From Vectrevirus NIC06P3, in sequence record OZ035778.1: a stretch of 45,947 nucleotides of DNA. The stretch is one strand, 5' to 3'. Numbering within the stretch: the stretch's first letter is position 1; each line of letters begins with the position of its first letter. Under the pieces are notes generated by a model. It searched no databases. It saw nothing but the letters and a program-made list of their open reading frames with translations, and was not told the origin of the DNA. Of this stretch, positions 2,979 to 10,236 are shown piece by piece. The translations under genes were made by a program, and so were the position numbers.

Positions 2979-3656
2979 GTGTTAGGTATTACAGGACAAC
3001 GAAGTGTAAGTCATCAAGCTAAGGTTGCCACGGAAGTGGCTCCTATCGTTGATATCTCAGATGTGTCTGACGTTAACTCTTATCTAAACCAAAAGTACCT
3101 ATCAGGTAAACAGGAAGGATATACTGTTCTGGCTAAGAAAGGTTCACGTTATTCATTGTATGCTGCAACAGGTTCTAAGCCAGAAGATAAGTGGTTGCCT
3201 TTAGAGCAAGCAACCTTACCTGATTCGAGTGCATTAGAGCTAATTGACACCATCGATGTTGAAGTTGCAAGTGCAAGCGACACAGTAGAGGTTAATGTAA
3301 CCAAAGAGAGGACTGTGTGCATCCAGACGCCTATGAAGGACTTAGCAGGTGATACAGTTTACCGGCAAGAATTGACTGCCAACATTAACCTTACCATTAA
3401 TGAAAACGGAAGCCCAAGCGATACGGTTAAATTAAACATATCAATTCCTAATTTGCCAGGAACATCTAGTGGGTCTTACTATACAGTTGACAATGTGCTG
3501 TGTACTTCTTTTGGAGACGACAGTCCTGTTATTGCCAATATAGATGTCGATAAGGCTACCACTAACTTGATTGCTGTTACACTTCGTAAAGAGACGGCAA
3601 CAGATATTAAGCTGTCTCTTGTAATTAGGTGGTCAATGCCAGTGGAGGTTGTATAA
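2979..3656 (+). CDS. hypothetical protein, paralog family member 3 with C-terminal extension
   Basis: Motif YLSGKQEGYTVL ... EDKWLP; start uncertain (GTG 2979 or TTG 2949); stop overlaps the endolysin ATG (TAATG). Confidence 0.45.
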   Translation: MLGITGQRSVSHQAKVATEVAPIVDISDVSDVNSYLNQKYLSGKQEGYTVLAKKGSRYSLYAATGSKPEDKWLPLEQATLPDSSALELIDTIDVEVASASDTVEVNVTKERTVCIQTPMKDLAGDTVYRQELTANINLTINENGSPSDTVKLNISIPNLPGTSSGSYYTVDNVLCTSFGDDSPVIANIDVDKATTNLIAVTLRKETATDIKLSLVIRWSMPVEVV

Positions 3657-4000
3657 TGCTTAACAAATACTTCAAGCGTAAAGAGTTTGCTTGCCGTTGT
3701 GGGTGCGGCACATCTACTGTTGATGCTGAGTTACTACAGGTAATCACAGATGTGCGTGAGCACTTTGGTTCTCCTGTAGTTATCACTTCTGGGCATCGCT
3801 GCGCCAAGCACAATGCTAATGTAGGTGGAGCTAAAAACTCCATGCATCTTACTGGTAAGGCTGCTGACATTAAGGTACGAGGCATCTTACCATCTGAAGT
3901 GCATAAGTATCTTACTGATAAGTACCAAGGCAAATATGGGATTGGTAAGTACAACTCCTTCACCCACATTGATGTACGGGATGGGTGTGCACGATGGTAG
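3656..4000 (+). CDS. endolysin, peptidase M15-type zinc peptidase
   Basis: KEFACRCGCG ... SGHRC.KHN ... SMHLTGKAAD motif set typical of M15 endolysins; RBS GGAGG at 3644-3648. Confidence 0.75.
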   Translation: MLNKYFKRKEFACRCGCGTSTVDAELLQVITDVREHFGSPVVITSGHRCAKHNANVGGAKNSMHLTGKAADIKVRGILPSEVHKYLTDKYQGKYGIGKYNSFTHIDVRDGCARW

Positions 4001-4108
4001 GTTGTGTTGCATGGTGTGAACGCATGGTTGCTAAGGCTTCAGAGGAAGGTAACTATGAGGATTGGCAGAACTACTCAACTTTATTAGCTCAATGGAAAGG
4101 GAGGTGCA

Positions 4109-4258
4109 ATGAAAAAGCTGTTCAAGTCTAAGAAGGTTGTAGGTGCACTAGTTGCATTGGCAATTGCTCTTGTTTCTGTAGGTCTTGGCGTAGACCTTGG
4201 CTCTGGCACGGAATCCTCTGTGACAGATGTGGTCTGCCAAGTGATCACCTGTGAATAA
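4109..4258 (+). CDS. small single-pass membrane protein (49 aa), possible holin-like lysis accessory
   Basis: MKKLFKSKKVVGALVALAIALVSVGLGV...; RBS GGGAGG; below the 60-aa ORF-track cutoff; position in lysis cassette. Confidence 0.4.
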   Translation: MKKLFKSKKVVGALVALAIALVSVGLGVDLGSGTESSVTDVVCQVITCE

Positions 4259-4472
4259 GTTTCTAGAAGTGCTGGCAGGTCTTATTGGCCTGCTTGTCTC
4301 TGCTAAGAAGAAACAAGAAGAGAAGGAGGCACAAAGTGAGGCGAATCGTGCTAGCGACAATCCTGCTGATTGGTTCGCTGATCATTTCCGGGTGTCAGAA
4401 GGCGTTACCAGAGAATCAAAAGGTGAAGCCACTGAGGCCGACGCTGACGGCAGTTTACGAAGTGGACGATAA
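4251..4472 (+). CDS. i-spanin (Rz-like), GTG start
   Basis: N-terminal TM helix LEVLAGLIGLLVSA followed by a charged periplasmic domain; sits after the endolysin and contains the o-spanin gene in another frame. Confidence 0.5.
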   Translation: MNKFLEVLAGLIGLLVSAKKKQEEKEAQSEANRASDNPADWFADHFRVSEGVTRESKGEATEADADGSLRSGR

Positions 4473-8006: not shown

Positions 8007-8356
8007 AAGTAGATAGGCTGTACGGCAGAATACGCAGGAACTTATTGCTTCATATCGTAACGTGAAGAAATAATTTTGCATCGTCTGCGTAGCAGTTAGT
8101 ATCTTAGTGTAACAAAGGGCTGACCTAGGTTGGCTCTTCATGAAGGAGGCAACATGATTTGGATTCACACGTATGGTGTAGGGCCGTTCAAGAAGAAGGT
8201 ACTCAGGAAGATTCATGAGTCCGAGGAATCAGCCTTAGCCAGCCAGAAGGTACTTGGTGGTACTGTCCAGTGCTACATGAAGAAGCCACAAGGCTTTAGC
8301 TTAGTATAATACAATAGTTAATATGAAAGGTTAGGTGTATGTTGTAGGGAGGTTTA

Positions 8357-8620
8357 ATGGTCATTGTCTCTAGTAAGAAGAAGAAGCAGAGTGAAATGGA
8401 TAAGATAGTGCAGACAGGTCTTGCTGCTAAGTCTGGTCAGCCACTCAATACTGGCACTAGTTCAATGGACAAGATCGTTGAAACAGGGAAACAGGCAATG
8501 TCTGGTGGGTTGGACAAGGGTGCACGGAAGCAGGCTGAGTTCAATAAGATTATTGATTTCGGTAAGGAAGCTAAGAGGGAATTCTTAAGACCATCTGCGG
8601 TAGAACCAGTAAGACACTAG
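8357..8620 (+). CDS. hypothetical protein with internal repeat MDKIV(Q/E)TG
   Basis: 87-aa ORF, Lys-rich; location in the genome right-end region; coding status uncertain. Confidence 0.3.
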   Translation: MVIVSSKKKKQSEMDKIVQTGLAAKSGQPLNTGTSSMDKIVETGKQAMSGGLDKGARKQAEFNKIIDFGKEAKREFLRPSAVEPVRH

Positions 8621-8670
8621 GTAGATTCTTAGTCCTGTACAAGGATTAACCAAAGTCAAAATTTTGATAT

Positions 8671-9590
8671 AGGCGTGTGTGAGCTCTCTCGCCCTCGCCC
8701 TCGCCGGGTTGCCCCCCCCCCCCCCCGCCCCCCCCCGCCGCGCCGGGGGCCGGGGGGGGGGCGGGGGGCGGGGGGGGGGCCGGGCCCGCCGCGCGCCGCC
8801 ACCCGGGAGGAGGCCCCCGCGGCCGTAGACGCGCTGTGCCTGAGCGTCCCCGCCGCGGCCGAGACGGCCCTGCGGCGTCTCCTGGTCGGGGAGGCCGCGG
8901 CGCCTCAGCGCGAGGACGCCGGGTCGACGGCGGCGGCGCCGGCCGGACCGGGCTCCTCCTCGGGCGAGCCCGGCGAGGGCGCGCTCACGGACCAGGCCAG
9001 CCAGAGCCCCAGCGCGTAGAGCGGCAGACCCATCACGAGACGGGCGACGCCCAGGGCCGTCGCCGCGTCCGCGAGGTAGAGCGGCACCTGCACGCCCAGC
9101 CGCAGCGCGAAGACGGCCGCCATCACCCAGGTGGCCGCCGCGTAGGCGCGCCGGCGGCGGGGGTCCGCACGCCATGCGGTCCCCTCCCCGCGCACGAGGC
9201 CGAGGATCAGGCCCACCACGGGCCAGCCCGCGAGGATCGAGACGAGGAACGCGAGGCCGTAGCCGGCGTTCGTGATGAAGCCCCAGAGGTAGTAGTCCCG
9301 GGCCTGCCCCGTGGTCAGGGCCACCGCCACCGAGAGCACGACGACGACGAGCCCGGCCAGGACCTGCGCGGGCGACTGGCGCTGCGCGAGCCGGACCACG
9401 CCCATGAGGACGGCCACGCCCGCGGCGGCCACGCCCGAGGGCCACACCTGCTGGGCCCCCGTGGTTTGGGGGGGTCGTTGTGGTCTGAATCCGCGCGTTT
9501 TCACAATGTAAATTTTTTTTTTTGAGGGGTGGTTGTGCCCGCCCCCCCCGCCCCCCGGGGGGGGCCCCCCCCCCCCCCCCCCCCCCATAT
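8671..9590. other. foreign high-GC block bounded by C/G homopolymer tracts (probable chimeric/artefactual insert)
   Basis: Abrupt composition shift; C16/C8/G10-type runs at 8711-8790 and a C22 run at 9565-9586; T11 run at 9514-9524; minus-strand frame reads like a truncated polytopic membrane protein. Confidence 0.6.
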
Positions 9591-9659
9591 GGGTGGCCTT
9601 GGTGATTGGCTTAGGAATTGGGCTGGGCGGGGCCGTCTTCGACGGGTTGGCTGGGGGGC

Positions 9660-10236
9660 TTGCCTTGTACTATCTTAGTGATACACAAGGGAGGACGCCT
9701 AGGAAGCGCTAGGGCACGCCTTAGTATTGGACAAGGTGATTGCCTTAGTGCAACCACTTTGGGCTTACACAGGCCGTTTTAGGGCCATTCTGGGCTATTG
9801 ACAGGGTGGGCGTGGGTGGGCTATCTGTTCGTTTCGTTCACTCCGCTTGCGCTACGTTCACTCGCTCACGTGTACCTTAGGTTATTGCTTGATGGGTAGC
9901 TTAAGTTAACCTTAGTGGATTGCCTTAGTTAAAGCCTTAGTGCTTCACTTAGTATCAGCTTAGTAGTGTACCTTAGTTGGTCTTAGTTCCTTATCTTAGT
10001 GATTGCACATGCAAGCATATAAGATGCCAATAGGTCGCGGTCGGTAGACCGCTAAAGAAAGAGAATAGTAATAAGATGCAGCAGGAGGAACACCAGAAAC
10101 CTAGCCAACCTAACCTATCCTAGCCTTGTATCTATTGCTTATCCTTAGTCTCACACGTTAGACAACCTAGGTTTATATTAGTAGTTGTGACCTGTATCAC
10201 ATAAATAATCTATCTTAGTGAAACTTAGTGTTGACA
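9660..10236. repeat. array of short CTTAGT(G) repeats in the genome left-end non-coding region
   Basis: At least 15 copies of (C)CTTAGT(G), eight of them within about 100 bp (9900-10010); analogous to the short repeat arrays near T7 termini. Confidence 0.55.

Follow-up and report, generated by a model that had tools for sequence, protein, structure and literature searches.

Phages of the Vectrevirus group infect Escherichia, Salmonella, Klebsiella and related hosts, and their genomes begin physically at the left end of a direct terminal repeat. In mutPK1A2, positions 1-286 are annotated as 'redundant repeat', opening CTCGCCCTCGCCCTCGCCGG-ACTTTCCCCATATGGGGTCG. The stretch of DNA analysed here (45,947 nt, hereafter the window) is a complete, circularly permuted Vectrevirus genome, that is, of an SP6/K1E/K1-5-like coliphage (Autographiviridae, Molineuxvirinae). 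The terminal repeats of K1E, K1-5 and mutPK1A2 have in common with the window the left end CTCGCCCTCGCCCTCGCCGG and a CCCC-ATA(T)-GGGG palindrome ~25 nt into the repeat; a similar CCCCCATAGGGGG lies near the left end of T7. The C-run of the Vectrevirus palindrome is 4-6 nt long in most relatives but 15-22 nt or more in the window, and the window record holds 828 nt of non-phage sequence inside it.

Micrococcus is listed among the contaminant genera of reagents and laboratories (Salter et al., 2014; PMC4228153). In the two-channel dye chemistry of the MiniSeq instrument G carries no label, and long poly-G stretches at read ends have been documented for this instrument (PMC6291791). Phages of the Guelin collection were sequenced from Nextera libraries on a MiniSeq and assembled with SPAdes 3.15.4, Bandage serving to resolve ambiguities (bioRxiv 10.1101/2023.11.22.567924). 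Two ENA records from this collection, OZ035776 and OZ035735, start at the same base as the window, their first positions aligning without offset, and have the repeat junction at ~8.0-8.8 kb. From this common start coordinate and the genus, and from these two points only, we infer that the window came from the MiniSeq/SPAdes/Bandage pipeline of the Vectrevirus records in ENA PRJEB69283.

Results

The block lies inside the terminal repeat

When a 20-kb stretch of the window was compared with mutPK1A2, K1E, VEc3 and several ENA 'Vectrevirus' records, 95-99% of it aligned, at identities of 89.6-91.4%; none of the phage records searched was identical to the window. The flanks of the block matched Vectrevirus relatives on both sides, and its middle was without a match. 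The conserved left end of the repeat, CTCGCCCTCGCCCTCGCCGG, was located at 8688-8707 and corresponds to mutPK1A2 positions 1-20; the repeat start was identical in LF31P3 and in 13 Vectrevirus-like contigs of IMG/VR. This left end occurred a single time in the 45,947 nt, indicating that the repeat has been collapsed to a single copy and that the record is permuted, and a search for a second copy of the repeat across the window found none. The end of the repeat (GGGTGGGCTA, 9814-9823) was placed by comparing the two repeat copies of OR594179. With the block excluded, the native repeat measures ~283 nt, as against 286 nt in mutPK1A2. The locus has the conserved left end, a length of ~280-310 nt and the bounds seen in the direct terminal repeats of characterised Vectrevirus members.

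The permuted ENA record LF31P3 reads ...GATATAGGCGTGTGTCAGCTCT-CTCGCCCTCGCCCTCGCCGGGTTG-CCCCC-ATATGGGGTCGG... in this region, and the site of the block is uninterrupted in LF31P3 (GGGTTG-C5-ATATGGGG), in mutPK1A2 and in the 13 IMG/VR contigs. The window agreed with LF31P3 up to GGGTTG (8711) and continued with C15; phage sequence resumed at 9587 (...C22-ATATGGGTGGCC). The block therefore begins 24 nt into the repeat, counted from its left end, and sits within the C-run of the conserved palindrome. The original prediction, which had placed it at the terminus of a T7-like genome, was right in substance, although the block lies within the repeat and not at the junction of the genome ends. The features of the region are collected in Table 1.

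Table 1. Features in and around the block, in window coordinates.
Feature	Position	Strand	Remarks
Start of the native direct terminal repeat (CTCGCCCTCGCCCTCGCCGGGTTG), the physical left end of Vectrevirus genomes	8688..8711	+	Matches mutPK1A2 1-20
Left C-run, C15-G-C9	8712..8736	+	C-run at the same site in relatives
Low-complexity noise of G and C only; possibly a degraded read-out of phage sequence from the right side of the tract (ATATGGGTGGCC...)	8737..8786		
Micrococcus sequence with dense miscalls, decaying into G/C noise	8787..8849		82.5% identity; 11 mismatches in 63 nt
Micrococcus TrkA_N/TrkA_C gene, last 76 codons and stop, startless	8789..9019	+	C-terminus of a 260-aa product, 3615-4397 in loci L003-L006
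Clean Micrococcus chromosomal DNA	8850..9455		98.84% to M. antarcticus ABH-515; 7 mismatches in 606 nt, gapless
Micrococcus DUF3159 membrane-protein gene without codons 1-59 (60-242 and stop present)	8905..9455	-	PF11361
Noise, weak alignment to ~8612-8650	9456..9503		Global alignment
Error-ridden second copy of phage 8651-8711 (pre-repeat sequence and repeat start), including T11	9504..9564		
Right C-run, C22, followed directly by ATATGGGTGGCC as in relatives	9565..9586	+	
Rest of the terminal repeat, ending ...GGGTGGGCTA	9587..9823	+	Aligns to mutPK1A2 from position 26 on

Composition and coding content of the block

The G+C fraction was 0.42-0.45 up to ~8600, rose to 0.74-0.83 over 8600-9350 and had fallen to ~0.40 by 9950. 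Overall, the block (8709-9586) contained 78.6% G+C compared with 45.4% for the remaining window, in line with the abrupt jump in composition that had been described, and no other 1-kb bin exceeded 52%. All nine homopolymer runs of at least 7 nt fell within 8712-9586, and none was present in the other 45 kb of the window, a clustering far beyond chance. These runs are C15 (8712-8726), C9 (8728-8736), two of G10 (8752-8761 and 8770-8779), G7 (9468-9474), T11 (9513-9523), C8 (9542-9549), G8 (9557-9564) and C22 (9565-9586). The homopolymers listed in the original prediction are real, but some were misnumbered: the reported C16/C8, G9 and T11 at 9514-9524 are in fact C15/C9, G8 and T11 at 9513-9523.

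The reported minus-strand frame 8905..9588 does exist and encodes 227 aa, with genuine coding sequence only at 8905-9455. Its ATG is provided by the phage's own CATATG and precedes 45 junk codons. Residues 46-201 matched the Pfam family DUF3159 (PF11361) with E = 1.1e-50 and 172.5 bits (cut-off 34.2), covering profile positions 25-180 of 188; by homology the fragment belongs to the family, although the gene is incomplete. The G/C-rich third positions noticed earlier were borne out by a GC3 of 96.7% in the coding sequence of the block, as against 51% in a phage ORF. The frame had also been said to have no credible start of its own, and indeed the fragment begins at donor codon 60, the initiation codon being supplied by the phage.

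The interior is a fragment of a Micrococcus chromosome

The interior had been expected to match a high-GC bacterial membrane protein, and this expectation held. A stretch of 669 nt (8787-9455) gave ungapped alignments with four contigs of Micrococcus, at identities of 97.3-97.5%. The DUF3159 fragment was 98% identical to its best protein match, the 242-aa protein P0001 of Micrococcus sp. EYE_162, and its nearest protein matches all came from Micrococcus or Micrococcaceae. In a genome scan, the closest species representative was M. antarcticus ABH-515, with 99% amino-acid identity for the DUF3159 protein. The gene order of the donor is kept, the DUF3159 gene being convergent with the TrkA gene, and the fragment is cut inside both. 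The donor DUF3159 gene starts at locus position 3001, and the match of the window begins at 3179. The breakpoints in both Micrococcus genes are arbitrary.

Mismatches to Micrococcus were concentrated at the left edge, where 11 of the 18 fell in 63 nt. Here 8 of 17 A/T reference bases had changed, as against 3 of 46 G/C bases (Fisher p = 6e-4). Of the first 21 residues of the TrkA fragment, only 10 came through these changes unaltered; T>C changes were also present among the mismatches of the Micrococcus part. The left-edge mismatches grade into the G/C-only stretch, and their pattern is that of base-calling decay and not of strain divergence.

A tblastn search with the DUF3159 protein found no match in 50,697 phage records. 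The block was absent from more than 100 related phage records, no phage record matched it beyond the first 43 nt, and its exact junction patterns were absent from IMG/VR.

The borders contain noise that resembles the neighbouring phage sequence

The stretch 8709-8790 has a G+C content of 97.6%. When the phage sequence to the right of the tract (9587-9637) was subjected to an A>C/T>G transform, it matched 8739-8789 in 44 of 52 columns, and 0.7% of 8,992 phage windows scored as high. With the left flank of the tract included (8725-8784), the a-priori site was the top-scoring window on the plus strand. At p ~0.007 and in a two-letter alphabet, this match is suggestive only, and would be explained if the left noise were a reading of the phage beyond the tract with the loss of one dye channel (A>C/T>G). 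The borders of the block form C-run/G-run foldbacks, near-perfect at the left border.

On the right, the switch out of clean Micrococcus sequence is abrupt (9455|9456), whereas the transition on the left is gradual. Alignment of 9504-9559 (CAATGTAAATTTTTTTTTTTGAGGGGTGGTTGTGCCCGCCCCCCCCGCCCCCCGGG) with 8651-8708 (CAAAGTCAAAATTTTGATATAGGCGTGTGTGAGCTCTCTCGCCCTCGCCCTCGCCGGG) gave a local score of 35, with ~40 of 58 positions matching. This score was reached by none of the 4,484 phage windows scanned and by none of 1,000 shuffles, the maximum being 31. A global alignment carried the correspondence of this garbled copy further left, towards 8620, and A was the least stable base in it, with 19 of 28 A columns changed (10 to T, 7 to G). 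Substitutions of dye-loss type (A>C/T/G, T>G, C>G) made up 29 of the 44 in the right noise if it is read on the plus strand, an orientation that is assumed. Judged by these alignments, the T11 'junk' is garbled phage sequence and not foreign DNA.

The origin of the T11 piece emerged only by gapped alignment to the phage sequence that neighbours it a priori. The 85-nt piece containing T11 found nothing meaningful in phage records, E. coli (best E = 0.8) or plasmids (E = 0.2), and in blastn-short searches of the phage and of the sequence flanking the Micrococcus fragment it scored no better than shuffles. A comparison of 9456-9545 with 17 Illumina, Nextera, Ion, 454, BGI, PacBio, ONT and SMART adapters gave no score above shuffled controls. 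For 9456-9503, searches of adapters, phage, Micrococcus flanks, E. coli, plasmids and phage records gave no significant match; this part is probably a continuation of the garbled phage copy.

Other sources of the noise were considered and rejected. As a continuation of Micrococcus, the right noise fails since the donor beyond 9455 is unrelated, and the left noise fails since, within the Micrococcus locus, its top 'channel-loss' match lies elsewhere than next to the fragment. Red-channel-loss transforms gave nothing above background at either border.

Taken together, the alignments suggest that each C-run adjoins a degraded version of the opposite flank of the tract: the sequence after the left C-run would be a reading of the true right flank, this half being suggestive only, and the sequence before the right C-run a reading of the true left flank.

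A poly-C tract occurs at the same site in relatives

Relatives read GGGTTG-C(4-21)-ATA(T)GGG at the site, with nothing inserted. The C-run is C4-C6 in the 13 Vectrevirus-like IMG/VR contigs, C12 in both repeat copies of OR594179 and C21 in MZ234012, the last two being GenBank relatives. In the Drulisvirus KXP, GCCCTCGCCGGG-C27 is found near the genome end. Other assemblies thus have a long C-run at the exact site, which makes it probable that the outer C-runs of the block are native, that is, the phage's own poly-C tract read once from the left and once from the right, and not a product of tailing.

We rate at slightly under an even chance the proposal that a poly-C tract of ~20-25 nt, at a distance of 24 nt from the left end of the repeat, is really present in the phage and expands the C-arm of the palindrome. 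The short C4-C6 run of most relatives counts against a long native tract. A search of IMG/VR and of JGI/ENA metagenomes with the pattern CGCCGGGTTG plus C10 matched only unrelated contigs. The junction and C10 pattern searches thus turned up neither the block in a second source nor a long tract in any metagenomic Vectrevirus.

Discussion

The block is not a real biological feature. Its sequence makes it very probable that we are dealing with an assembly artefact that has taken up contaminant Micrococcus DNA, and not with phage DNA. One phage locus is present twice, clean on one side of a near-pristine contaminant and garbled on the other, an arrangement that argues for an assembly artefact and not for horizontal transfer. 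The fragment is nearly identical to a recognised contaminant, keeps the synteny of the donor and ends at breakpoints unrelated to gene boundaries, and its junctions are of low complexity, with a G/C-only border, an A/T-to-G/C decay and the garbled duplicate of 8651-8708. The original prediction had preferred artefact or contamination to horizontal acquisition, and the identity of the donor, the cutting of both genes at random points, the lack of the block in relatives, the error decay and the garbled phage copy all come down on that side. The true sequence most likely reads ...CTCGCCGGGTTG-C(about 20-25)-ATATGGGTGGCC..., with 8711 joined to 9587 via one poly-C tract. The corrected genome, 8711-C(n)-9587, would measure ~45.1 kb with one copy of the repeat.

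A sequence of events can be proposed for the origin of such an artefact. Reads that run past a long G/C homopolymer may lose fidelity, and there would arise a garbled, G/C-only version of the right side of the tract, now at 8737-8786, and a garbled version of its left side, now at 9456-9564. The assembler could retain the clean and the garbled versions of the flanks as separate tips at the tract, and one of these tips could meet a low-coverage contaminating Micrococcus contig (8787-9455) in G/C-only k-mer space. The tips would then be joined, either by a path through the assembly graph or by the butting of linear contig ends during rotation to the common start of the collection. Being abrupt, the boundary at 9455|9456 is a candidate site for the joining of two contig ends after assembly, and a native poly-C tract would account for the misjoin having landed at this site. 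Simple dark-cycle decay predicts G's at the 3' ends of reads, and does not alone predict the C-rich/G-rich order that is seen.

The same arrangement of phage, Micrococcus and phage could be a physical chimera, formed in vitro during library preparation by template switching in the tagmentation PCR or by chimeric amplification, and then sequenced faithfully. PCR-based libraries do yield chimeras, G/C-rich low-complexity stretches favour template switching, and a Micrococcus fragment of ~670 nt has the size of a library insert. However, two independent switches would be required, both in the same C-run of the phage, and in the assembler the true path, with its high coverage, would not lose out to a single chimeric molecule. 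The garbled second copy of phage 8651-8708 is left unexplained, as are the G/C-only stretch and the A/T-to-G/C decay of the Micrococcus edge, which are errors of base-calling type. We therefore consider a physical chimera unlikely, with a small chance of being correct. Deliberate or historical terminal-transferase dG/dC tailing of a cloned or end-mapped fragment, an option raised in the original prediction, has its classic footprint in an insert bordered on either side by G/C homopolymers of 10-22 nt, such as are present here. It would be expected to leave one clean G-run and one clean C-run, whereas each border of the block mixes both with foldback symmetry, and the right border holds a garbled copy of the phage. 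The outer C-runs coincide with the C-run of relatives, neither a tailing signature nor any vector or adapter sequence was found, and the pipeline from which the window appears to come uses tagmentation; tailing is accordingly the reading to which we give almost no credence.

Genuine horizontal acquisition would mean that a Micrococcus-derived insert, flanked by expanded poly-C, is physically present in the terminal repeat of virion DNA. The phage sequence around the block is otherwise continuous, a slippage-prone homopolymer could conceivably receive an insertion, and an extra 0.9 kb is not obviously beyond the capacity of the capsid. Against this, the donor is a Gram-positive actinobacterium (Actinomycetota) that has no ecological connection with an E. 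coli phage, both genes of the insert are truncated and startless, and a donor identity of 98.8% together with the GC3 of 96.7% indicates that the DNA has not resided in a 45%-GC genome. Every relative lacks the block, and DUF3159 is missing from the whole set of phage records searched. In real DNA, a copy of the adjacent phage that matches at ~40 of 58 positions would not be expected beside an insert that is 98.8% faithful. In addition, the insert would have moved the first 24 nt of the repeat ~0.85 kb away from CCCC-ATA(T)-GGGG, which is kept near the genome end in relatives. The block offers none of the marks of a phage cargo gene, namely a complete ORF with its own start, presence in related phages and a donor from the host range with adapted composition, and horizontal acquisition is extremely improbable.

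The assembly artefact has practical consequences. If deposited as it stands, the record places ~0.85 kb of noise and actinobacterial DNA in the terminal repeat of a coliphage, together with a 227-aa ORF that would pass, spuriously, for a 'DUF3159 membrane protein'. Such a block can seed false calls of horizontal transfer or of auxiliary genes, distort host prediction and k-mer-based models trained on the collection, and mislead analyses of termini and packaging. The variable poly-C beside the genome end of some SP6-like and KP34-like phages may, for its part, be genuine. If so, poly-C recurs sporadically and with variable length in independent Autographiviridae isolates (OR594179, MZ234012, KXP). 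It would then be a slippage-prone, possibly phase-variable element within sequences for concatemer processing and genome-end formation, and also a systematic trap for short-read assembly.

Among known systems, genuine phage cargo genes (morons and auxiliary metabolic genes) resemble the block in that a bacterial-type gene appears in a phage record. Unlike anything in the block, they are complete, originate within the host range, belong to a transcription unit, are found again in relatives and come to approach the composition of the phage. The two-channel poly-G artefacts of MiniSeq, NextSeq and NovaSeq instruments (PMC6291791) are similar in their long G/C homopolymers and apparently in the progressive loss of A/T to G/C, and A, which needs both dyes, is the least stable base, as in the right noise here. 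Classic poly-G, however, is a terminal read tail that is normally trimmed, whereas the noise in the window was assembled and includes C-runs as well as G-runs, the platform itself being a likely one only. Classic poly-G also follows run-off from short inserts, whereas the noise here seems to have been triggered by crossing a native homopolymer. Contaminant misassemblies in deposited genomes (PMC4228153) share with the block the near-identical contaminant DNA, the random breakpoints within genes, the unameliorated composition and the lack of a counterpart in relatives. The present case differs in that the contaminant does not form a separate contig but is spliced inside a finished, single-contig phage genome. 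It also differs in that the splice appears to run via garbled read-out around a homopolymer and has left a noisy duplicate of the phage as its diagnostic trace. The combination of a clean and a garbled copy of one locus around a near-pristine contaminant at a homopolymer is a diagnostic that needs no reads, and can be reused on other records.

C-runs in the terminal repeat and at contig ends

A C-run whose length differs greatly from one genome to another occupies the same site, about 24 nt into the terminal repeat as counted from its left end. It may be a real tract prone to slippage, or a place where assembly goes wrong repeatedly. In a Drulisvirus, Klebsiella phage KXP, a C27 run follows the same GCCCTCGCCGGG motif as at that site.

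Analysis of unrelated metagenome contigs showed CGCCGGGTTG followed by C10-C20 at the contig end, adjoining other G/C homopolymer junk, as in the arrangement G14...CGCCGGGTTG-C20. This suggests that low-complexity G/C read artefacts may have been built into contig tips of other assemblies as well. Two further matches (contigs L139 and L140) look like G-run/C-run hairpins.

Features at the genome ends and at contig tips
Feature	Record	Coordinates	Strand	Length or form
C-run	Most Vectrevirus genomes and IMG/VR contigs			C4-C6
C-run	OR594179	~823-834 and ~1133-1144 of locus L008		C12
C-run	MZ234012	~623-643 of locus L007		C21
C-run	Window	8712-8736 and 9565-9586		15-22 or more
C-run	ON755175 (Klebsiella phage KXP)	64-90 of locus L009		C27
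Contig-end CGCCGGGTTG and C-run	Ga0105053_10058320	1-90
Contig-end CGCCGGGTTG and C-run	IMGVR_UViG_3300013352_000007	1-60
Last ORF before the right genome end	Window	8357-8620	+	87 aa

Record starts, topology and genome ends

Comparison of positions 1-120 of the window with the same positions of OZ035776.1 and OZ035735.1 showed that the first base is homologous in all three and precedes by 29 nt a reading frame that opens with GTG. The two latter sequences are ENA 'Vectrevirus' records without annotation. This common start base implies that one post-assembly rotation and pipeline would have served all three records. A search of 50,697 phage records did not contain the window itself.

The GenBank record OR594179.1 (locus L008, 43145-44656) bears the myovirus prefix vB_EcoM_, is classified in Kayfunavirus and is marked circular. 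The Vectrevirus-type left-end sequence occurs in it twice, at a spacing of 310 nt, indicating that both copies of the terminal repeat were retained in this 'circular' record. Its name, taxonomy and topology look mutually inconsistent.

The last ORF before the right end encodes a product rich in lysine and glycine, within which one short stretch recurs (MDKIVQTG / MDKIVETG). The product had no match in Pfam, and related phages list it only as a hypothetical protein.

Seven of the 12 CCTTAGT heptamers in the window fall within 430 nt (9719-10149), all on the + strand, in the terminal repeat and just beyond it; across the whole window, 12 against an expected 6.3 is not a strong excess over chance. 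Looser CTTAGT(G/A) repeats lie on either side of the terminal repeat; the observation also takes in 8097-8320. The CCTTAGT cluster recalls the short reiterated motifs found near the genome ends of the T7 group.
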